64,000 nt of DNA. It comes from Candidatus Bathyarchaeota archaeon (lineage in GTDB: Archaea > Thermoproteota > Bathyarchaeia > Bathyarchaeales > Bathycorpusculaceae). The position numbers were made by a program, and so were the translations under genes. The notes under the pieces are model-generated. The model worked only from the letters and a program-made list of their open reading frames with translations, was not told the origin of the DNA and searched no databases. Positions 21,041-37,145 of this stretch are shown here, piece by piece (positions within the stretch are counted from its first letter, which is position 1; every line of letters starts with the position of its first letter). Location of the stretch: contig OY970340.1 of the NCBI GenBank assembly GCA_963717465.1, positions 96,001 to 160,000 on the forward strand, read 5' to 3'.

Positions 21041-22402
21041 TTATCCCCATGTTGGGTAATCAAAACCCATATCTTTGAACTCTTTTGTAAATCGGTTATA
21101 GTGGTCCACTAATTCCTTCCTTGGTTTCAAAGTTTCCTGGTCATAGTATTCATAAAGGTTATGTGATAGCTGACCAAAGTCAAAAGCCTTCATAGCTGGT
21201 TCAAATTTCTTGATCCACTCTTTTATGAGCTTGTTGCCTTCACTTACTTTTGTTCCAGCCGCTGCTCTTGTGAATTCACTGCCAAACCTTGCGCTTATCG
21301 CAGGGAAAGTGCCTACCATCCACATTCCTTCTATCCCAGCTACACAACAAGTCATAACTGCCGCCGCTGTTCCATACCAGTCAACTTCATTCATAGGTTG
21401 ATTTAGACCAATTCCGCTAGTAAGCCATGGAGCTTTTATGTTTCTTTCTGCAGCTAAACCTACCGCTGAATTACTCCAAAAGACATCCGCACCTATGTAT
21501 TGATTATCAATGGTGTTGCTCATAGCCTGAGTGAATGAGCCATCAGCATAAGCCATCTGACCTATAGAGTGAGCCATAGATTCAAGTACTGATTCTTCTG
21601 GACCACTAATATACGCGTACAATGTAGGACTGGAACTCTGCCATGGAACAATTCCATGCTGCATAGCAAAGTAGGCAAGATTAATTCTATCAATGACTAT
21701 TCTCATGTCTTGCAGTATGTGTACTGGCATCATGCAGTTCCTAGGTGTGTAGTAGCCAGGGTCAAAAGCTTGCATCAAAGCAACCATGCTCGTTGCAGTC
21801 TCGGGAAAACCAAGTAACATGCCAGGTCTTCCAGCAGCACGCGCCGCAGCAGTCATCAGTTCACATTCAGTGTGAACCATCAGGGTTTCAGTAGGCGTTC
21901 CTCCTGTCGGTTTCTGACCAAAAGACGCCTCAATAATCGCGGGTATCATCCCGTCCGTCGTCGGTTCGCGAGCCATAAGATAAACAGCATCTCTCCATTG
22001 TCCTACGTCACTGCCCATCCAACCGCCAGCATTCAAACAGTATGGATGCTGCTTATCTTCAGGAGCTCTAATGTGCATTCTTAGTATATCTCTGCCTGTT
22101 CCCCACTCAACCTCATGCTTTCTTGTCTTAACAACTTCTTTAAGTTCATTTTCAGTGAACTTGACGAGGTGCTTAGTGTCTTTGCAATACAAACCGCATT
22201 GAACCAACAATTGTATGCCGGCTTCAAAAATAGCATCAGCCATTGCTGCATCCGACATAATTGGTTCGCCGTCAAATTTAATCTTGTAGTCTTGCACTAG
22301 TTTCTTGAGGATTGTTGGAAAATACGTGTTTTCAAATTCGTCTTCTTTCATTATTGGACCCGTTCGGGTTCTTTCTAAAACTTCCCACAATAAATGTCCC
22401 AT
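21041..22402 (-). CDS. MtmB-family corrinoid methyltransferase lacking pyrrolysine
   Basis: ERTRTGP, ADAIFEAG...G.YCKDT and AGRPGM..G.PET motifs. No in-frame TAG. Confidence 0.85.
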   Translation of the reverse strand: MGHLLWEVLERTRTGPIMKEDEFENTYFPTILKKLVQDYKIKFDGEPIMSDAAMADAIFEAGIQLLVQCGLYCKDTKHLVKFTENELKEVVKTRKHEVEWGTGRDILRMHIRAPEDKQHPYCLNAGGWMGSDVGQWRDAVYLMAREPTTDGMIPAIIEASFGQKPTGGTPTETLMVHTECELMTAAARAAGRPGMLLGFPETATSMVALMQAFDPGYYTPRNCMMPVHILQDMRIVIDRINLAYFAMQHGIVPWQSSSPTLYAYISGPEESVLESMAHSIGQMAYADGSFTQAMSNTIDNQYIGADVFWSNSAVGLAAERNIKAPWLTSGIGLNQPMNEVDWYGTAAAVMTCCVAGIEGMWMVGTFPAISARFGSEFTRAAAGTKVSEGNKLIKEWIKKFEPAMKAFDFGQLSHNLYEYYDQETLKPRKELVDHYNRFTKEFKDMGFDYPTWG

Positions 22403-24182: not shown

Positions 24183-24836
24183 TTAAGTTTTGCCTACGAG
24201 CATTCGTGCTTTTTTGATTGCGTCGCCGCAGTCTGCACCCCAAGTATCAGCCTTAATCCGCTTGCAGAAATCATCAGTCATCGGAGTACCGCCAACAAGC
24301 ACCTTATACTTCTTACGCAACCCACGCTCAACAAGCGTATCTACTAATGCTCTCTGATACGACATACTGCTAGTCATCAACGCACCCATAGCAACAATAT
24401 CAGCATGAACCTCTTCAGCCTTCTTCACATAGTCCTCGGTTGGAATCTCTTCACCTAAGTCATAAACGTCAAAGCCATCGGTACGCAACATGTCAGCAAT
24501 CAAGTTCTTGCCGATGCTGTGGATGTCACCGAAAGCCGTGCCAATTACGACTATGCCTTTTGCCTTTGGCAGCTTGTCTTTGGGATACTTTTCTTTGAGA
24601 TAGTTAACTGCAGCAGTCATCGCGTTAGCAGCCATAATCACGTAGGGTAGAGGATATTCAAAGCGGCCAAAACGGTCACCAACCTCTTTGATGCCAACAG
24701 ATAAGCCTTTCTCGATAGCATCCATAATCTCCAGCTTGTTCTCAACAGCTTCTTTTGCCGCTGCAACAGCCTTTTCCTCATCATAGTCAATGATTGCTTT
24801 AGCGAGGTGTTCAAGTACTTCAGCTTTAGTTACCAT
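24183..24836 (-). CDS. Methyltransferase cognate corrinoid protein (MttC/MtbC-like), copy 1
   Basis: GDIHSIGKN B12-binding motif, GALMTSSM, VGG, and N-terminal cap domain. Confidence 0.95.
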   Translation of the reverse strand: MVTKAEVLEHLAKAIIDYDEEKAVAAAKEAVENKLEIMDAIEKGLSVGIKEVGDRFGRFEYPLPYVIMAANAMTAAVNYLKEKYPKDKLPKAKGIVVIGTAFGDIHSIGKNLIADMLRTDGFDVYDLGEEIPTEDYVKKAEEVHADIVAMGALMTSSMSYQRALVDTLVERGLRKKYKVLVGGTPMTDDFCKRIKADTWGADCGDAIKKARMLVGKT

Positions 24837-24861: not shown

Positions 24862-26451
24862 TTAGAATCTTGCGCCTGTGCCTGATTTGTCTATTGTGTA
24901 GCCGCCGATCTGGTACATTTTATCGTATCTGGCTATGATTGCATTCATTCTGTCTGCTACTTCTTTTGGTGGCAGTGGAGCAGGGAAGTCTTTAATGATC
25001 TTCTGGGTTAAAGCGTTTGCACGATCATCCATGCATTTCTTGTCCTCGATCCATCGTAGATATTGTCTAACTTCCCACAAACCGTAACCGTGACGCATCG
25101 GAGCGAACATTAATTCCATCATATTTTTCACTGTATCCTTGTCCTTCATGAAGTCGCCTCTGGGACCCTTATTAAGCCACCCTTCAGGTTGGTAACTCTT
25201 GGCTGAAAAGTCAACGTCCCTGAAATACCACTTCATTATTCTAATCATTTCAGCGCATATAGCATAACCCATCATGTTGATTCCGTTTGGACCTACGGTT
25301 GTGGACCATTCTCCTGTCTGATCAGTACCGTTTTGGAATGCATTAAGCAAATGCCAACTCATCATGCCGTTTTGCGTATCAGAACCACCAGCGCCAACCG
25401 ATCCTACGGCTTGGCCAGGCCACATCGTAGCTTTTGGTCGACTGTAATTGCGGTGCCAGAAGTTCACGTGAATAGCAAGTGCCTTACTAAATATTTCTTC
25501 AGTGGTTGCTAATTGCTGAGTGTATGGGTCCATAGGCATGACCAGATCGTAAGTCATAACTGGGACATGGCCTTTCCCAACTCCGTTCAATCCCAAACTT
25601 AAACCTACTGACATCGATAAAGCTGCGGCAACAGTAACTGCGTAAGCTCCCGTTAAGCTGCATGGACCTTGGAATCCAGGTATGCAAACATCTGTGTAGT
25701 CTATAAGCAGAGGTCTGCTCTTCGCCCAGCCTTCTAAAGTTCCGCTCATTCTGTCACTTGTTTTTTGGCCGTAAACTAGACCTGGTGTGTCTCCATGGTT
25801 AGTTATGAATGGTCTCTTCGCAAGCTCATCAAATCCTCCGAGAACCTCAGCGGCTAAATCAGTGTAACATTCAATATGATCAATTGCGTCAATATGCCAA
25901 ATATGCTTTGTAGTGCATTGAATAGTACTGTTGAGATCATGAGTATCCACTGGCAAACCAGCCTCAGCCAAATCCATAGGTAAGTATATGGGGCTAGTCA
26001 TGTCATACTCGGGGAAGTACTCAACAACTTTTTGCTCTTTCCAGTTGTCAGCATCTACTCCATCTCGGAATTCAAATAGTCGTGTATCAGGATTCCATTT
26101 TGCATAAAGGGCCATTATGCCGAAAGCTCCAACAAAGACATTGTTGCTTCCTGCTTGCATAAAGCAGTCTTCTTTAGGAGCCCTACCTGGCAGAACCAAG
26201 TTGCTCGGCACTGCGTCTATGCCTTCGACTGCAATAGCTTCAGGAATTTTTACGATTCCCTTCTTCTCATCAACAACGGTGCAACCTATGTCTTTGTAGA
26301 TTTTTTGAAGCTTAGGTGTGAGACCTCCAACCCCAACTCTTTCTAATAGATAAACTGCGGCTTGATGTATTGACATTAGTTCTTCTCTCGTCGCTATAGG
26401 CGGAGAAAATCTCTTAGGTATATTTGTTCCAGTTCTCATTTTTCTTTTCAA
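24862..26451 (-). CDS. MttB-superfamily methyltransferase, pyrrolysine-free, copy 1
   Basis: IHQAAVYLLERVG, GPCSLTG, D.Q.G, GPRGDF and PLPPKEV..MNAII pattern; directly upstream of the corrinoid gene; no TAG. Confidence 0.8.
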   Translation of the reverse strand: MKRKMRTGTNIPKRFSPPIATREELMSIHQAAVYLLERVGVGGLTPKLQKIYKDIGCTVVDEKKGIVKIPEAIAVEGIDAVPSNLVLPGRAPKEDCFMQAGSNNVFVGAFGIMALYAKWNPDTRLFEFRDGVDADNWKEQKVVEYFPEYDMTSPIYLPMDLAEAGLPVDTHDLNSTIQCTTKHIWHIDAIDHIECYTDLAAEVLGGFDELAKRPFITNHGDTPGLVYGQKTSDRMSGTLEGWAKSRPLLIDYTDVCIPGFQGPCSLTGAYAVTVAAALSMSVGLSLGLNGVGKGHVPVMTYDLVMPMDPYTQQLATTEEIFSKALAIHVNFWHRNYSRPKATMWPGQAVGSVGAGGSDTQNGMMSWHLLNAFQNGTDQTGEWSTTVGPNGINMMGYAICAEMIRIMKWYFRDVDFSAKSYQPEGWLNKGPRGDFMKDKDTVKNMMELMFAPMRHGYGLWEVRQYLRWIEDKKCMDDRANALTQKIIKDFPAPLPPKEVADRMNAIIARYDKMYQIGGYTIDKSGTGARF

Positions 26452-26776: not shown

Positions 26777-29092
26777 TTATGGTCCAATAGGTCCGATGTT
26801 GGCTGAGTACACTTTTGCAAGATTAACTTTGAAGCACCAAGCTCCAAGTTCAGGACTAAGCTGCTCTGGACTATCTGGCACTGTAACGTTGATGTTCCAG
26901 TCTGCCCATCCATAAAGTGTTGGTTCCTCAGCTGGTAATTCAGGACGCCACCAGCCATGCTCGGGTGAAACGATTTTTGGATTTACTCCGAAGTCGTAAC
27001 GTACTGTCTGCATGCATCTGCCAAGCGGCGTCTCAATGTAAATCCATTCGCCATCGCCAATGCCCATGTTACGAGCCGTCAGTGGATGCATTTTTACACG
27101 TGGAAACGGACGCAAATGACGCATCAATGTTAAATGTCGATGTTCGCCATGCTGTGCTTCTTGGAATCTGGCTCCACTGCACATAATCAACGGATAATCT
27201 TTTGCAATATCAGGCGCACTTACCGGAGTCCAAGCGCACTCCACATAGTACGGCAGAGGATCAAACCCAAAGTCCTCCAGAATCGTTGAGTAGAATACAA
27301 CTTTGCCTTCAGGGGTTCCGAAGCCTCTAATCAATCCAGTGGTTGGATCAATTTGCTCGTACTTCTTGAACGTGGGGTTCCATGGTGGTACACCTTTCCA
27401 TTCGCCTATAACTTGCTTACGTGTCCAGCCTACTGGCTCATAGAACCAATCTTGGAACTGCTCTAAAGTCTTCCATTTCCAAACTCTATCGATTTTTTCG
27501 TTACCCAACATTTTAGCAGCAATGTGTCGGAATATTACCGCGTCGTCTTCTAAGTCCCACAATCCCGGTATCTTTTGAGCTACTGCACGATCGCCTGCAA
27601 TCTCAAACTCGATTGATCCTTGACATGAAATGGTTGCATATCCAGAAGGTCTCTCGAATTGACTAGTACCAGGCAGCACATAATCTGCTAACATGGCCTC
27701 AGGTGTCATCGAAGCGCATTCCACATAAACGAACAGTTCAAGCTTCTTAAGAGCTTCATAAATCTTCTTAGTGTTCGGATAACCTCGCATTGGACCTATT
27801 TCACCAGCCAACATCGCCTTAACAGGGTAAGGTTTTTCCGTCAAAATTGCCTCTATCGTTGCAGGCCAATTTGGAGCAATTGGTCCGGTATGTGGACCAC
27901 CCTTCCAATAGCCTTTGTCCATTCCTGCCTCAACAAGCGCTGCACCACCTGGCATCGTTAGCATCTTATACTTGTCCGACCCTATCTGTTTCTCCATTAT
28001 GCCCATATCAGTTTCATTAGCACAATCTGCAGCGGCTTCAGCACCCGAATAGAACTTGGGTTTTTGGTGCAGATATTCTCCGCCTTCTATGTCTATGTTG
28101 CCTGTTAACGCGGGCAGCATATATTTTGATCGAACGTTGTTTAATGAGTTCCTGCCTGCCGATTCGATTGCATAACCGAATGGGAAAGTGCATGGACTGT
28201 TTTTCACTACCCACCTAGCTGCCTCTCTGATTCTCTCGGCAGGAATCCAAGTTATTTCCGCAGCTTTCTCAGGAGTATACTGCTTGGCTCTTTCTTTGAG
28301 CTTGTCAAATCCAAAAGTCCACTTCTCCACGAAATCATGATCGTACAAGTCTTCTTCGATGATCACGTTTATCATAGCCATATTTAGTGCAGTGTCAGTT
28401 CCAGGCCTAATCGCCAACCACATTTCAGAAAGTCTAGTTGTTTCCGTATATTTTGGATCGACATTGAGCATTTTTACGCCAGCCTCTATTCCTGCAACAA
28501 ATCCTGGCCAAGAATACGTCCAAGATTCACTTGGGTTTGTGCCAGTTGTAAAGATACCCTTTGTTTTACCGGGAGTTATCATTGCATACGTTAATCCCAC
28601 GCCGTAGCCTAATCCTAAGGCTTGGTACGTGGGTCCAGCTCATGTGGTAGCTGCAGCAGAACCCCAGTTTGGGGAGCCTATCAACATACAGAGTTGATAC
28701 AGTCCCAAAGCAAGGTTTGCGGCTCGACCTGTGCCGTGGAATCCGCATACGGATTCGCCGCCATTCTTTGCTATGATTTCTTTTAGTTTATCAGATATTT
28801 CACTAATTGCTTGTTCCCAAGATATTTTCTGCCATTTGCCTTCGCCACGCTTGCCTATACGCTTCATCGGGTACATTGGCCTATCCTTATGATAAATGTA
28901 CTCAACACCATACTTCCACTTCTGACAATAAGGACCAGGATTAAATGGACTATCCCAATCAGGCTCAATCTTTGTGATTTTTCCGTTCTCAACCGTCTCG
29001 ACAAGTTGGCAGGAACCAGTACTGCAAAAACCGCAAACGCATCTATGAATCCCATCGAAACTCTTTGGATCTTCAAGTTTTTCACTCATCAT
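26777..29092 (-). CDS. Mo/W-bis-PGD oxidoreductase, acetylene-hydratase-like clade, copy 1; 771 aa with in-frame TGA (codon 151, probable selenocysteine)
   Basis: CxxCxxxxC..C Fe-S motif, ISWEQA, IRPGTD, ADYVLP and HGWW motifs. ORFs 28640..29092 and 26777..28600 are in the same frame and separated only by TGA at 28642-28640. Confidence 0.9.
28596..28633 (-). promoter_or_regulatory. SECIS-like hairpin 6 nt downstream of the in-frame UGA (copy 1)
   Basis: CCCACG-UA-CC-A-AGCCU-UAGGAUU-AGGCU-AC-GG-CGUGGG; conserved in the paralog. Confidence 0.7.
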
Positions 29093-30762: not shown

Positions 30763-31341
30763 TTAAGAACGGGATTTAAGGGGTTTTCGAGTTGAAATTT
30801 CAGGTTGGAATAAAGCATTCAAGCTTCGCAATGAGAACGGCCTTGGAAACTTATTGCCTGTGCGGAACATAACGCTACGTGTTTCCACATGTGGTCGCTG
30901 AGGTAATAACAGTGTTTCTTTTTGCACTTCCTTAGACAATTCTACGAAACCATCATAGTTCTTATGCACAGATATCATGACCCAGTTCGTTGATTCTAAG
31001 CCTTGATCCTCTATAGCGCAAAGCACTTCAGGATGTCTCTGCATTAATTCACGAACTTTGCTAGTTTGTTCTGGTGTTATCACTTCAGTAGTTGAGGCAA
31101 ATGTAAATACGATAACATCTAGCCCCATTTTGTACAAGTTAGGGATTATAGTGTACTCTTTTATGTAACCATCCTGCTCCAGCTTCCTTCTCCTCCTAGA
31201 CAATGTCGTGTTACTAATTCCTAAAATTCTAGCAATTTCTCTATCGCTTTTACCGCCTAGCGCCATTAAGGCAAATAGAACTTTCAGGTTTTCCAAGGCT
31301 TTTCTATCTAACGTATCGTGCGTGCTCAAAAACTTATTCAT
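30763..31341 (-). CDS. Lrp/AsnC-like regulator (paralog 2)
   Basis: Same HTH as 22833..23441. Confidence 0.85.
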   Translation of the reverse strand: MNKFLSTHDTLDRKALENLKVLFALMALGGKSDREIARILGISNTTLSRRRRKLEQDGYIKEYTIIPNLYKMGLDVIVFTFASTTEVITPEQTSKVRELMQRHPEVLCAIEDQGLESTNWVMISVHKNYDGFVELSKEVQKETLLLPQRPHVETRSVMFRTGNKFPRPFSLRSLNALFQPEISTRKPLKSRS

Positions 31342-31484: not shown

Positions 31485-32090
31485 CTATGCATCAATGGGG
31501 TTGATTGTCTTGCCATCCCGCTTGTTTTTGACGCCATGCAATGGTTTGACAGATTGAAACAATGATTCCATGTTTCTGAACGAGAATGGTTTTGGAAACA
31601 TCTTATCCGTATGAAACATGAAAGTGTGAGTTTCGATGTGCGGTGGTTGATGAAGGGATAGTAATTCGTTTTGCACTTTTTTAGACAGGTCTATGAAACC
31701 ATCATAGTTCTTGTGCACAGTTATGCCAAGCCAGTTTGTACCTTCTAAACCTTGATCTTGTAGTATGCACAGAATTTCGGGATATTTCTGAATTAAATCA
31801 TGAGCCTCTTTAGATTGCACTGGTGTCACAACATCAGTAGTAGATGAAAAAGAAAACACTATAACCTCTAATCCCATTTTATGCAAATCAGGAATTATAG
31901 TATACTCTTTTATGTAACCATCCTGCTCCAGCTTCCTTCTCCTCCTAGACAATGTGGTATTACTAATCTCCAAAATCCGGGCAATCTCTCTGTCACTTTT
32001 ACCACATAACGCCATTAGAGCAAACAAAACTTGCAGGTTTTCCAGTAGCTTCTTATCTAACGTATCTTGCTTGCCCAAAAGCTTATTCAC
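31485..32090 (-). CDS. Lrp/AsnC-like regulator (paralog 3)
   Basis: Same HTH as paralogs 1 and 2. Confidence 0.85.
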   Translation of the reverse strand: MNKLLGKQDTLDKKLLENLQVLFALMALCGKSDREIARILEISNTTLSRRRRKLEQDGYIKEYTIIPDLHKMGLEVIVFSFSSTTDVVTPVQSKEAHDLIQKYPEILCILQDQGLEGTNWLGITVHKNYDGFIDLSKKVQNELLSLHQPPHIETHTFMFHTDKMFPKPFSFRNMESLFQSVKPLHGVKNKRDGKTINPIDA

Positions 32091-32254: not shown

Positions 32255-32908
32255 TTAGGTTTTGCCTACGAGCATTCGTGCCTTCTTAATGGCGTCACCG
32301 CAGTCTGCACCCCAAGTATCAGCCTTAATCCGCTTGCAGAAATCATCAGTCATCGGAGTACCGCCAACAAGAACCTTATACTTCTTACGCAACCCACGCT
32401 CAACAAGCGTATCAACGAGTGCTCTCTGATAAGACATACTGCTAGTCATCAACGCACCCATAGCAACAATATCAGCATGGACCTCTTCAGCCTTCTTCAC
32501 ATAATCCTCAGTTGGAATCTCTTCACCTAAATCATAAACATCAAAGCCATCAGTACGCAACATATCAGCAATCAAGTTCTTACCAATACTGTGAATATCA
32601 CCAAACGCTGTACCAATAACAACTATGCCTTTTGCCTTTGGCAGCTTATCTTTGGGATACTTTTCCTTGAGATAATTAACTGCAGCAGTCATCGCATTAG
32701 CAGCCATAATCACGTAGGGTAGTGGGTATTCGAAGCGGCCAAAGCGGTCACCAACTTCTTTGATGCCAACGGATAAGCCTTTCTCGATAGCGTCCATAAT
32801 CTCCAGCTTGTTCTCAACAGCCTCTTTAGCCGCTGCAACAGCCTCATCCTCATTATAATCAATGATAGCCTTAGCCAAATGCTCAAGAACTTCAGCCTTA
32901 GTCACCAT
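32255..32908 (-). CDS. Corrinoid protein, copy 2
   Basis: 214 of 217 residues identical to 24183..24836. Confidence 0.95.
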   Translation of the reverse strand: MVTKAEVLEHLAKAIIDYNEDEAVAAAKEAVENKLEIMDAIEKGLSVGIKEVGDRFGRFEYPLPYVIMAANAMTAAVNYLKEKYPKDKLPKAKGIVVIGTAFGDIHSIGKNLIADMLRTDGFDVYDLGEEIPTEDYVKKAEEVHADIVAMGALMTSSMSYQRALVDTLVERGLRKKYKVLVGGTPMTDDFCKRIKADTWGADCGDAIKKARMLVGKT

Positions 32909-32932: not shown

Positions 32933-34507
32933 TTAGAATCTGGCGCCCGTTCCTGTTTTGTCTGCCGTGTAGCCGCCTATTTGGTACATCTTATCATACT
33001 TAGCAATAATTTCATTCATTTTGTCAGCTACGTCTTTTGGTGGTAATGGATTTGGAAATTCCTTTACGATCTTGTTAGTCAGGGCGAAAGCGCGATCATC
33101 CATGGTAAGCTTGTCTTCAATCCACCGAAGATATTGCCTCGTTTCCCATAAGCCATAACCATGACGCATAGGATAGAAGCCAGTATCTACCATGTTTTGC
33201 AAAGTGTATTTTTCCTTCATGAAGTCTCCTCTTGGGGTCTTCGTGAGCCATACATCTTTCATGTATGCGCCGGATGAAAAGTCTAAGTCCTTGAAATACC
33301 ATGTCATCATTCGAAGCATTTCAGCTGTCACAGCATAGCCCCATGGATTGATTCCATTCGGACCTACGGTGGAACTCCAACATCCTGTCTGATCAGTAGC
33401 GCTTTGGAGGGCGTTAAACAGATTGTAACTCATTAGGCCATTTTGTGTGTCTGAACCGCCACTGTAACCTCCTATGCTTTGTCCAGGCCACATTGTTGCT
33501 TTTGGCAAACTGTAGTTGCGGTGCCAGAAGTTCACATGAAGAGATAGCGCTTTACCGAATTGATCACCACATGCTGCTAGCATTTGCGTGTACGGCTCCA
33601 TGGGCATCACCAGATCATAGGTCATGACGGGGATATGGCCTTTTGCGACTCCGCCCATTCCCAAACCTAAACTTACCGCCATTCCTATAGATGAAGCCAC
33701 AGTCACTGAGTAGGCGCCCGTTAAGCTAATGGGACCTTGGAAACCAGGTATGCACACGTCAGTGAAATCTATAAGCAGAGGCCTGTTATTCTTCCAGCCT
33801 TCCAACGTACCAGTCATTCTGTCGCAAGTCTTTTGTCCATAAACTAAGCCTGGAGTGTCTCCATGGTTAGTTATGAACGGTCTCTTCGCAAGCTCATCAA
33901 ATCCTCCAAGAACCTCAGCAGCTAAATCAGTATAGCATTCAATATGATCAATTGCATCAATATGCCAAATATGCTTGGTAGTACATTGAATAGTGCTGTT
34001 AAGATCATGAGTATCCACTGGCAAACCAGCCTCAGCCAAATCCATAGGCAGGAAAATTGGGCTCGTCATATCGAACTCTGGGAAGTACTCAACAATTTTC
34101 TGCTCTCTCCAGTTGTCAGCGTCAACACAGTCTCTGAATTCAAAAAGTCGCGTAGCCGGATTCCATTTACCATAGAGAGCCATAATCCCAAAACCGCCTG
34201 CAAGAGTTCTGTTGCTTCCAGCGGATAAGAAACAGTCATTCTGGGGCGTCCTACCTGGCAAAATCTGCTCACTTGGTATTGCATTTACGGCTTCTACTGC
34301 AAGACCCTGAGACATCTTAGCAATTCCTTTCTTCTCGTCAACAGTGCAACCTAAATCCTTATAGACTTTGCAAAGCTTAGGAGTAACGCCTCCTACTCCA
34401 ATTCTTTCCAGCAGAAACATTGCGGCTTCATGGATTGACATTAATTCTTCTTTCGTTGCTAAAGAAGGGTTAGTGAACCTTCTAGGTACATTTATTCCTG
34501 TTCTCAA
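32933..34507 (-). CDS. MttB-superfamily methyltransferase, pyrrolysine-free, copy 2
   Basis: Full-length paralog of 24862..26451. Confidence 0.8.
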   Translation of the reverse strand: MRTGINVPRRFTNPSLATKEELMSIHEAAMFLLERIGVGGVTPKLCKVYKDLGCTVDEKKGIAKMSQGLAVEAVNAIPSEQILPGRTPQNDCFLSAGSNRTLAGGFGIMALYGKWNPATRLFEFRDCVDADNWREQKIVEYFPEFDMTSPIFLPMDLAEAGLPVDTHDLNSTIQCTTKHIWHIDAIDHIECYTDLAAEVLGGFDELAKRPFITNHGDTPGLVYGQKTCDRMTGTLEGWKNNRPLLIDFTDVCIPGFQGPISLTGAYSVTVASSIGMAVSLGLGMGGVAKGHIPVMTYDLVMPMEPYTQMLAACGDQFGKALSLHVNFWHRNYSLPKATMWPGQSIGGYSGGSDTQNGLMSYNLFNALQSATDQTGCWSSTVGPNGINPWGYAVTAEMLRMMTWYFKDLDFSSGAYMKDVWLTKTPRGDFMKEKYTLQNMVDTGFYPMRHGYGLWETRQYLRWIEDKLTMDDRAFALTNKIVKEFPNPLPPKDVADKMNEIIAKYDKMYQIGGYTADKTGTGARF

Positions 34508-34828: not shown

Positions 34829-37145
34829 TTAAGGTCCCATGGGCCCGATGTTGGCTGAGTATACTTTTGCAAGATTAGCCTTGAAGCACCATGCACCAAG
34901 TTCAGGGCTAAGATGCTCTGGGCCGTCAGGCACTGTAACGTTAATGTTCCAGTCTGCCCATCCATAAAGCGTTGGTTCCTCAGCCGGCAACTCAGGACGC
35001 CACCAGCCGTGTTCTGGGTCGATTATCTTGGGGTTAACACCAAAATCATAACGTACTGTCTGTCTGCATCTGCCAAGCGGTGTTTCAATGTAAACCCATT
35101 CGCCATCTCCGATACCCATATTCCGTGCTGTAAGTGGATGCATCTTTACACGTGGAACCGGACGTAAATGACGCATTAACGTGAGATGTCGATGTTCACC
35201 ATGCTGCGCTTCTTGGAATCTGGCTCCACTGCACATAATCAGCGGATAGTCTTTTGCAATGTCTGGTGCACTGATCGGTGTCCATGCACATTCCACATAG
35301 TACGGCAACGGATTGTACCCAAGTTCTTCTAAGATGGTTGAGTAGAACGCAACTTTGCCCTCAGGGGTACCAAAGCCTCTAACCAGCCCAGTCTCTGGAT
35401 CGATCTCTTCGTATTTCTTGAACCTTGGCTCATAGGGCGGAACACCCTTCCATTCTTCAATAACTTGCTTTCGTGTCCAACCAGCGGGCTCGTAGAACCA
35501 AGCTTGAAATTCCTCTAGAGTCTTCCAATGCCAAACTTCATCAACTCTTTGTTTACCGACAACGGCGACAGCTAGGTCTCTGAATATGATGCTGTCGTCT
35601 TTTAGATCCCAAAGTCCAGGTATTTTCTGGGGTAGTGCGCGGTCGCCTGCAATCTCAAACTCAATCTGGCCTTGACATGAACAGGTTGCGTACCCAGATG
35701 GCCTCTCAAATTGACTGGTACCGGGCAGCACGTAATCTGCTATCATAGCCTCTGGAGTCATGGAAGCGCATTCTACGTAAACAAAGAGGTCAAGTTTCTT
35801 TAAAGCCTCGTAAACTTTCTTGGTGTTCGGATAGCCTCTCATGGGACCTACTTCACCGGAAAGCATAGCTTTAATGGGGTATGGTTTTCCCGTTAAAATC
35901 GTATCTATCGTGCTAGGGAAGTTTGGACCTATTGGCCCAGCGGATGGAACTCCCTTCCAGTATCCTTTATCCATTCCTGCAGCAATAATTGCACCTGCGC
36001 CAGGATAAGCCAGCATCTTATACTTGTCCGCTCCTATCTGGTTTGACATCATTGACATGTCACAAGCGTTTATGACATCAGTATGCATCTCAGTACCTGA
36101 GTGGAATTTGGGTTTTGCATGCAGATATTCGCCGCCTTCTACGTCAATGTTGCCTGTTAACGCAGGTAACATATATTTTGATCGGATGTTGCTCAAAGAG
36201 TTCCTGCCTGCTGATTCGATTGCGTAGCCGAATGGAAAATCGCATGGATGATTTTTCGCTATAAATCGGGCAGCTTCTTTTATCTTTTCAGCTGGAATCC
36301 AAGTAATTTCCGCAGCCTTCTCAGGCGTATACTGCTTAACGCGCTCTTTGAGCTTATCAAATCCAAAACACCATTTCTCCACAAAATCATGATCATACAA
36401 GTCCTCCTCAATGAGAACGTTCAACATAGCCATATTCAGCGCAGTATCAGTTCCAGGCCTAATTGCTAACCAAACTTCTGAAAGTCTACCAGTCTCAGTA
36501 AATCTTGGATCAACAGTGAGCATTTTTACGCCAGCATCTACACCTGCAACAAACCCAGGCCACGAATACGTCCAAGACTCTCTTGGGTTCGTACCAGATG
36601 CAAAGATACCCTTAGTCTTACCAGGAATTATGTTTGCATACGTTAATCCCACGCCATAGCCTACTCCTAAGGCTTGGATCGTGGGTCCGGCTCATGTCTG
36701 AGCAGCAGCGGAACCAAAGTTTGGGCTACCCATCATGATAAAGAAAGCAGCCTGTCCAAGACCCAGATTCGCAGCTTCGCCCGGTGCCGCTAAAGCCGCA
36801 AATTGATTCTCCACCGTACTTTTCCTTGATTTCTTTCACTTTTGTGGATATTTCTTCGGTCGCTTGTTCCCATGATATTCTTTGCCATTTGCCTTCTCCA
36901 CGTTTGCCTATTCTTTTTATTGGATACATCGGTCTGTCCTTGTTGTAAATGTATTCTAAACTGTACTTCCATTTTACACAATAGGGGCCCGGATTGAACG
37001 GGCTTTCCCAATCAGGCTCGACCTTTGTGATTTTTCCATTCTCAACAGTCTCAACAAGTTGACAGGAACCAGTACTGCAAAAACCGCAAACACACCTGTG
37101 AATCCCATCGAAACTCTTTGGATCTTCAAGTTTTTCACTCATCAT
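34829..37145 (-). CDS. Mo/W-bis-PGD oxidoreductase, copy 2; in-frame TGA at 36694-36692; one extra base near 36776 (probable sequencing indel)
   Basis: Span is 2317 nt, i.e. copy 1 length plus 1. The corrected frame reads GTGRAANLGLG...GSPNFGSAAAQT-TGA-AGPTIQALG. Confidence 0.88.
36648..36685 (-). promoter_or_regulatory. SECIS-like hairpin 6 nt downstream of the in-frame UGA (copy 2)
   Basis: CCCACG-AU-CCA-AGCCU-UAGGAGU-AGGCU-A-UGG-CGUGGG. Confidence 0.7.

Follow-up and report, generated by a model that had tools for sequence, protein, structure and literature searches.

Evidence for a selenocysteine codon at the metal-ligand position of a molybdenum/tungsten enzyme family in a Bathyarchaeon, with a candidate recoding hairpin inside the open reading frame

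An atypical selenocysteine (Sec)-encoding system, characterized by a fusion of PSTK to aSelB, has been described in "diverse Bathyarchaeota" and in one Archaeoglobus (Mukai et al. 2022, PMC8762117), and a review of the same year repeats the Bathyarchaeota system (PMC9499178). The accessible portions of two reviews place the selenocysteine insertion sequence (SECIS) elements of archaea in 3′ untranslated regions (UTRs) (PMC13188914, PMC11227280), and one of them gives the bacterial element as a stem-loop in the open reading frame (ORF) directly past the UGA, whose primary sequence is little conserved from one family to the next (PMC13188914). As for selenoenzymes with molybdenum or tungsten (Mo/W), the portion of that 2026 review available to us names none besides formate dehydrogenase and formylmethanofuran dehydrogenase B, and acetylene, polysulfide, dimethyl sulfoxide (DMSO) and "anaerobic dehydrogenase" go unmentioned in it. 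Here, we analyze a window of 64,000 nucleotides from Candidatus Bathyarchaeota archaeon (contig OY970340.1, positions 96,001 to 160,000), by which we mean that whole stretch of DNA, and within it a gene for an enzyme of the bis(molybdopterin guanine dinucleotide) (bis-MGD) type that is interrupted by an in-frame TGA. Our comparison of sequences suggests that the TGA at 28640-28642 on the minus strand is, with high probability, a selenocysteine codon, and we put the overall explanation, in which this bis-MGD enzyme receives Sec by the archaeal route, at a probability of about 0.88.

That archaea outside the methanogens and the Asgard group use Sec is already known and is not new here. The sequence-only reading of this DNA had confined archaeal Sec to Methanococcales, Methanopyrus and Asgard archaea, a view that is outdated given the published Bathyarchaeota system (PMC8762117) and the fact that NCBI annotates such proteins in Bathyarchaeia. 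We found no account of a Bathyarchaeal selenoproteome or SECIS in the open-access literature. In the running text of Mukai et al., the word "SECIS" is absent and "selenoprotein" occurs once; Figure 9B and the supplements, which lie outside this scope, may show selenoprotein genes. The text of a 2017 mBio paper contains neither "SECIS" nor "SelB" nor "hairpin", and the accessible parts of the Asgard selenoproteome paper and of the 2026 review do not mention "Bathyarchae".

The gene, hereafter copy 1, and its principal features are as follows:

26777..29092, minus strand: copy 1, a 771-codon bis-MGD (DMSO reductase superfamily) gene related to acetylene hydratase, with predicted Sec151 (translation with TGA as U, Pfam, best PDB match 2e7z)
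28640..28642, minus strand: in-frame TGA, taken to encode Sec151 as the predicted Mo/W ligand (2e7z alignment, Cys homologs, paralogs)
29009..29041, minus strand: N-terminal Cys motif C18-x-C20-x2-C23-S24-x3-C28, [4Fe-4S] site (Pfam Molybdop_Fe4S4 at residues 19-68, 2e7z alignment)
28596..28633, minus strand: conserved hairpin inside the ORF, candidate SECIS (folding, pairing, synonymous constraint)

The letters TCA at window positions 28640-28642 of the forward strand read TGA on the coding strand, and translation of 26777-29092 with TGA as U gives 771 residues with one recoded codon, U151, in a frame that is open on both sides, just as the sequence-only reading had described it. The immediate context is ...IGSPNWGSAAATT-U-AGPTYQ..., and the longer one is ...LIGSPNWGSAAATT-U-AGPTYQALGLGYGVG.... 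Three Pfam families, Molybdop_Fe4S4 (PF04879), Molybdopterin (PF00384) and Molydop_binding (PF01568), match over their cut-offs, and the best PDB match by phmmer is acetylene hydratase 2e7z (E 1.5e-102), continuous over residues 18-755. In this alignment, HMMER sets U151 opposite the Cys of ...SPNWTSA-MYMC-IGNT, the residue that ligates the tungsten in acetylene hydratase; the earlier placement of the TGA at a metal-ligand column is thus borne out. Under translation table 11, copy 1 falls into two ORFs, one of 150 residues (28640-29092) and one of 607 residues (26777-28600). The splitting by gene callers that the sequence-only reading had foreseen is also what protein databases contain, where copy 1 and its close relatives (62-91% identity) are present only as pieces of 560-607 residues, as expected when a gene caller stops at a TGA of the copy 1 type.

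The sequence-only reading had pointed to tRNA-Sec, SelB, SelD and PSTK or SepSecS as the genes whose presence would matter, and all of them are found in the same genome. There are two tRNA-Sec genes (found by ARAGORN and scored by Rfam at 71.8 and 61.8 bits, above the gathering score of 47), which are 96% identical and show a compensatory change in the acceptor stem. SepSecS adjoins the first of them (488.9 bits, cut-off 224.85), SelD is present (240 bits) and has an in-frame TGA of its own at the known Sec position, and PSTK and SelB are fused in a single frame twice, in proteins of 744 and 740 residues. The second set lies at:

genome C1:2827363-2829585, minus strand: second PSTK-SelB fusion, 54% identical to the first and beside the second tRNA-Sec
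genome C1:2829638-2829725, minus strand: second tRNA-Sec, adjoining the second PSTK-SelB fusion

As far as the available portion of Mukai et al. (PMC8762117) goes, the fusion architecture is that of the published Bathyarchaeotal system, to which this genome adds the second tRNA-Sec and the second, diverged fusion. The GTPase motifs of the latter are changed (GHCKHGKT, EMPGN and SKID in place of GHVDHGKT, DLPGH and NKID), a Pfam scan of it returns KTI12, GTP_EFTU, GTP_EFTU_D2 and aSelB_III, and it has no close relative among the 120 best database matches. Homologous PSTK-SelB fusions of about 720-735 residues are numerous in databases. Their closest organism-named members belong to Candidatus Bathyarchaeota or Bathyarchaeia (69-70% identity), in agreement with the earlier attribution of this DNA to a probable Bathyarchaeon. 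The trait is patchy: of 400 other genomes sampled from the class, 11 have SepSecS, and two same-genus draws gave 0/36 and 3/39.

A paralog search of the whole genome, which is a single contig of 3,053,889 bp, recovered 11 paralogs, each with one TGA, and their translation and extraction place all 11 TGAs at the same column. Eight paralogs are otherwise intact and three are broken elsewhere, including copy 2 in the window; an additional 137-residue fragment of the family is also present. Because all 11 carry the TGA at the same column, a chance origin of this codon is excluded. Among the eight intact paralogs, dN/dS has a median of 0.123 ahead of the TGA and of 0.122 behind it, and most dS values exceed 1. 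These values indicate that both halves have been under the same purifying selection and that the codon is older than synonymous saturation. The copy in the window comprises:

34829..37145, minus strand: copy 2, a paralog (81-82% identical in protein) that shares the TGA and has one base inserted near 36775-36776 (DNA alignment, translations)
36692..36694, minus strand: TGA of copy 2, at the same column as in copy 1
36648..36685, minus strand: hairpin of copy 2

The frame of copy 2 is shifted by an extra A in CGAAGC at 36775-36776, about 80 nt upstream of the TGA, and copy 2 is either a recent pseudogene or the product of an assembly error. A look through public runs turned up two of DNA, from peat and freshwater sediment, and none of RNA; the matching contigs are 151 nt long, of low depth, and lie outside both the TGA and the frameshift of copy 2.

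Outside the genome, the TGA column holds Cys in all 16 aligned full-length homologs (38-44% identity). The tBLASTn comparison that the sequence-only reading had proposed, for Cys/TGA alternation at this column, gave Cys at 49 of 50 related sites, Gly at one, and TGA at none; none of the relatives examined for Sec at the ligand column has it. The nearest homologs are proteins of the Chloroflexota/Dehalococcoidia type (40-44% identity), and the named relatives include a Ca. Hecatellales archaeon (40%), Dehalococcoidia and many Eggerthellaceae, Gordonibacter and Ellagibacter (31-38%, nearly full length). A related-locus search with a single protein found no relative, and an alignment-based scan found only relatives of the Cys type, at 40% identity or less. 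In an order-wide search, the family was detected at E<=1e-150 in one of 400 other genomes, in a copy without the stop. The central claim of the earlier reading, that Sec stands at the metal-ligand position, is therefore upheld by the machinery in the genome, by the Cys homologs and by a TGA kept across old paralogs under purifying selection, and remains a prediction of high probability.

The candidate SECIS has the form UGA-GCUGGA-[CCCACG-UA-CCA-AGCCU]-UAGGAUU-[AGGCU-A-UGG-CGUGGG]. A hairpin occurs in all 11 paralogs, with a minimum free energy (MFE) of -17 to -24.5 kcal/mol and a core stem that begins 6-7 nt past the UGA. In the alignment of the 11 sequences, 89% of cells are paired, compared with 23-47% when the 3′ partners are slid, and five pairs are changed on both sides; none of 500 shuffles reaches the observed values. 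A paralog of only 42% identity retains the stem via CCAACG:CGUUGG. Synonymous-codon identity peaks in a 15-codon window that starts two codons past U151, at 0.774 compared with 0.572 over the whole gene. All 11 genes have AT-rich 3′ flanks that begin with oligo-T tracts. Over the 150 nt past the stop, 10 of the 11 flanks are less stable than the genome average (z +1.1 to +2.1), and the eleventh, which overlaps the next gene, has a z of -0.3; in one paralog, the following gene starts about 50 nt past the stop. No stable stem-loop was found in these 150 nt of any of the 11 genes, where the best 60-nt fold has -5 to -13 kcal/mol, the search being one for stable folds and not for the GAA_A motif. 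An Rfam scan of 32 kb around four selenoprotein loci returned no SECIS family at E<=1.

Hairpins of this kind are also found at unrelated Sec sites of the same genome. A screen for in-frame TGAs with strong downstream folds (background 1% quantile -17.7) brought up two further genes:

genome C1:1519920-1522484 = L126:2921-5485, minus strand: HdrA-MvhD (FlpD) fusion, 854 residues, two in-frame TGAs (fold screen)
genome C1:2822987-2824237 = L127:3988-5238, minus strand: 416-residue protein without a Pfam or NCBIfam family, two in-frame TGAs (fold screen)

Both TGAs of the HdrA-MvhD fusion are at the known HdrA and FlpD/MvhD Sec positions, and the stems behind them start 6 nt past the UGA (-25.8 and -22.9 kcal/mol). 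Both TGAs are retained by the orthologs of three related genomes, as are the two hairpins with the same 6-nt spacing. Across the four genomes, the TGA forms have a post-UGA MFE of -20.7 to -27.4, with z of -2.0 to -3.2 within the gene, at eight of eight sites, whereas the TGT/TGC forms have z of +1.7 to -1.1 at eight of nine sites despite nearly identical peptides. The HdrA-MvhD ORFs are 81-86% identical, and their 3′ flanks cannot be aligned between genomes except for the two closest, which have about 60 nt in common. SelD behaves similarly, with z of -2.1 to -3.2 for the TGA forms (3/3, a count that omits a fourth TGA form, that of G051, which the search pattern missed) and of -0.7 and -0.9 for the Cys forms (2/2). 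In the 416-residue protein, the U207 column is Cys in seven of seven distant homologs and the U267 column in six of seven, and the gene is flanked on one side by that of a RACo-type corrinoid activase and on the other by that of a corrinoid protein; it may represent a new selenoprotein methyltransferase family. A PDB search with the read-through protein P0122 gave no meaningful match. A coding-potential screen for further selenoproteins was noisy, and it missed SelD because the Sec of that protein is near its N-terminus, and the selenoproteome listed here is a minimum. We conclude from these alignments and folds that Sec decoding in this lineage appears to be tied to an in-ORF hairpin that follows the UGA directly.

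Several observations weigh against parts of this interpretation. The hairpin overlaps a conserved peptide (GPT...GYGVG), so that part of its nucleotide conservation comes from coding. A covariance model (R1) made from it matches its 11 training paralogs only, which indicates that it has no primary-sequence motif in common with the hairpins of HdrA, MvhD and SelD. The Cys homologs of the family fold alike (mean -15.3, with 19 of 49 at or below -17), and folding energy by itself does not discriminate, probably because these come from GC-richer bacteria, as judged from organism names and not from base composition; among the Cys forms of the other proteins, one MvhD site likewise gives a stable fold (z -2.1). 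Lastly, SelB is of the archaeal type, and Pfam detected no bacterial SelB winged-helix (SECIS-binding) family in the second fusion, the one ORF scanned. The peptide overlap, the covariance result and the SelB type, along with the placement of archaeal SECIS elements in UTRs by the reviews cited above, would suit a situation in which decoding of the UGA depends on something other than the hairpin; the SECIS would then be in a distant 3′-UTR or in the 5′-UTR, or be dispensable, and the hairpin would slow the ribosome or be a by-product of coding. We regard this as unlikely, although it is the most serious of the alternatives, since in three unrelated proteins the presence of a hairpin goes with whether an ortholog has TGA or TGY at a given site, the 3′ flanks lack structure and for the most part cannot be aligned, and synonymous constraint is maximal at the hairpin, which also shows compensatory changes. 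The SECIS is thus probably the hairpin inside the ORF, at the bacterial position, and not a 3′-UTR element as in methanogens and Asgard archaea.

The reading of the codon itself could also be different. The UGA could be read as Cys or another standard residue, for example if SepCysS converted Sep-tRNASec to Cys-tRNASec. Cys is the residue of the homologs at the ligand column, and Mukai et al., in the part of their paper available to us, discuss the acceptance of Sep-tRNASec by SepCysS and the lack of SepCysE in Bathyarchaeota (PMC8762117). However, the same source proposes that the PSTK-SelB fusion prevents such cross-talk, the Sec pathway is complete, including SelD and SepSecS, and the use of TGA instead of TGY would be pointless for a Cys product across 11 paralogs with dS above 1, all of which make a Cys reading very improbable. 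Even less credible is that the TGA is a true stop, leaving a pseudogene or two genes, a 150-residue Fe-S piece and a 607-residue piece that starts from a GTG 13 codons downstream. Gene callers do annotate this split, and the three clearly decaying paralogs out of 11, with the frameshifted copy 2 among them, are a point in its favor. Nevertheless, the other eight are intact, with equal purifying selection on both sides, the split would take away the metal ligand and sever one fold, whose match to 2e7z runs unbroken over residues 18-755, and SelD and HdrA-MvhD of the same genome have TGA where Sec is known to stand. A genome-wide reassignment of TGA to a sense codon, which the several genes with in-frame TGA might bring to mind, is effectively refuted by the 253 of 1032 long ORFs (at least 300 codons) in which TGA is the terminator; in addition, the in-frame TGAs that were checked sit on conserved Cys or known Sec columns, and both tRNAs with a TCA anticodon are tRNA-Sec by Rfam. 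Sec at position 151 is the explanation that we retain for copy 1.

As to the identity of the enzyme, acetylene hydratase proper was considered and rejected. Copy 1 shares with the acetylene hydratase of Pelobacter acetylenicus (2e7z) the domain order, the N-terminal Fe-S motif, a single subunit without a twin-arginine translocation (Tat) signal and the ligand column. It differs in its predicted Sec ligand, where the ligand position is a TGA and not a Cys codon, and in Ser24, since its C-x2-C-S-x3-C replaces the Asp of C-x2-C-D-x2-C. That Asp, after the second cluster Cys, is catalytic in acetylene hydratase, and with Ser at its position, copy 1 is not acetylene hydratase proper. The acetylene hydratase identity in the sequence-only reading accordingly does not hold, all the more so as the genome has a separate, true ortholog of the Cys type:

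genome C1:1817825-1820071 = L143:826-3072, plus strand: true acetylene hydratase ortholog, 748 residues, ligand Cys and Asp kept (875 bits to 2e7z)

Copy 1 scores 347 bits to 2e7z, compared with the 875 of this ortholog, whose gene is some 2 kb upstream of the Sec paralog that diverges most. A scan of the enzyme against NCBIfam reached no equivalog cut-off, which counts against any assignment of a substrate. The portion available of a 2020 eLife paper places catechol dehydroxylases (Dadh, Cldh and others) beside acetylene hydratase and mentions archaeal homologs; it delimits the group by more than 30% identity and E <1e-34 to Dadh/Cldh, with members closer to these and to acetylene hydratase than to other bis-MGD enzymes (PMC7028382). 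Copy 1 is 31-38% identical to homologs from Eggerthellaceae, Gordonibacter and Ellagibacter, genera of characterized dehydroxylases, a comparison with homologs and not with the characterized enzymes themselves. The Sec-containing formate dehydrogenase and formylmethanofuran dehydrogenase B belong to the same superfamily and have Sec as Mo/W ligand at the homologous position, and formate dehydrogenase is among the PDB matches of copy 1. They form another subfamily, however, with a UHxP motif (Table 1 of PMC13188914, a source available in part) in contrast to T-U-A-G-P here.

The surroundings of both window copies contain the following genes:

24862..26451, minus strand: MttB-superfamily methyltransferase homolog, 529 residues, without in-frame TAG, downstream of copy 1 (Pfam MTTB 4.2e-15; TIGR02369 113 bits, cut-off 525)
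24183..24836, minus strand: corrinoid (B12-binding) protein (Pfam B12-binding and B12-binding_2; TIGR02370 197.7 bits, cut-off 215.3)
30763..31341, minus strand: winged-helix helix-turn-helix (HTH) regulator, upstream of copy 1 (Pfam HTH_24)
31485..32090, minus strand: second winged-helix HTH regulator (Pfam HTH_24)
32933..34507, minus strand: MttB-superfamily homolog downstream of copy 2, without in-frame TAG (Pfam MTTB 2.7e-16)
32255..32908, minus strand: corrinoid protein downstream of copy 2 (Pfam B12-binding)

A winged-helix HTH gene is also found near five of the seven other paralog loci that were scanned, two of these other paralogs have a cupin or SCP2 protein downstream, and a third has a flavin/pyridine-nucleotide oxidoreductase on its upstream side. 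Such an arrangement fits a group of inducible enzymes, each with a substrate of its own. It is conceivable, at somewhat less than even odds, that the intact paralogs each act on a particular aromatic substrate, a catechol or methoxy-aromatic compound, and not as acetylene hydratases.

The window also holds an MtmB homolog at 21041-22402 on the minus strand (Pfam MtmB 161 bits, profile 4-449 of 450), which has no in-frame TAG and would thus be a non-pyrrolysine member. Elsewhere in the genome, ARAGORN reports a 98-nt "tRNA-???" at C1:904785-904882 on the minus strand, with a four-base anticodon, ccgg, which may hold an intron. For the closed 3.05-Mb genome, it lists only 38 tRNA genes, and completeness estimated from markers is 88%, which points to tRNAs that contain introns or are split and to a lineage that marker sets cover poorly.

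Taken at the strength given above, the proposed mechanism would have Sec-tRNASec made by the archaeal route, with tRNA-Sec, PSTK, SepSecS and SelD, and delivered by the aSelB that is fused to PSTK. Recoding would be directed by the in-frame hairpin of about 38 nt, with its core stem 6 nt past the UGA, and Sec151 would be the Mo/W ligand in a cytoplasmic bis-MGD enzyme of one subunit, from the clade of acetylene hydratase and the catechol-dehydroxylase-like enzymes. The position of the hairpin and its lack of sequence similarity between families resemble the bacterial SECIS (PMC13188914, in the portion available); the host differs in being an archaeon that has PSTK and SepSecS and whose SelB is of the archaeal type, with no bacterial SelB winged-helix domain detected in the fusion scanned, and the hairpin is a candidate element only. 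We lean slightly toward a broader view, in which Bathyarchaeia with PSTK-aSelB decode Sec-UGA by an in-frame hairpin about 6 nt past the codon, as a third archaeal mode that may combine a bacterial-style SECIS geometry with archaeal/eukaryal Sec biosynthesis. The reader of the hairpin could be the fused PSTK or the C-terminus of aSelB, and the second, GTPase-degenerate PSTK-SelB may, with its own tRNA-Sec, be specialized for the Mo/W family.

Within the literature searched, a Mo/W enzyme with a Sec ligand that is neither a formate nor a formylmethanofuran dehydrogenase appears to be new, and so does the position of a likely SECIS inside the ORF. If the latter is true, an element inside the ORF that is read by an archaeal-type SelB informs the coevolution of SECIS position and SelB domains, and such a SECIS makes a compact recoding cassette that can be tested in reporters. 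Bathyarchaeia are abundant archaea of sediment and peat that have been linked to the turnover of compounds with aromatic or methyl groups. With eight intact and three decayed members, the Sec-ligated Mo/W enzymes of this genome would be, to our knowledge, the largest single archaeal selenoprotein family, and one that is invisible in Bathyarchaeia annotations because gene callers split all of its genes. If our reading is true, a Sec-ligated enzyme of the acetylene hydratase/dehydroxylase clade extends selenium-metal chemistry to a different reaction class, and the family would supply natural Sec/Cys pairs for comparison.

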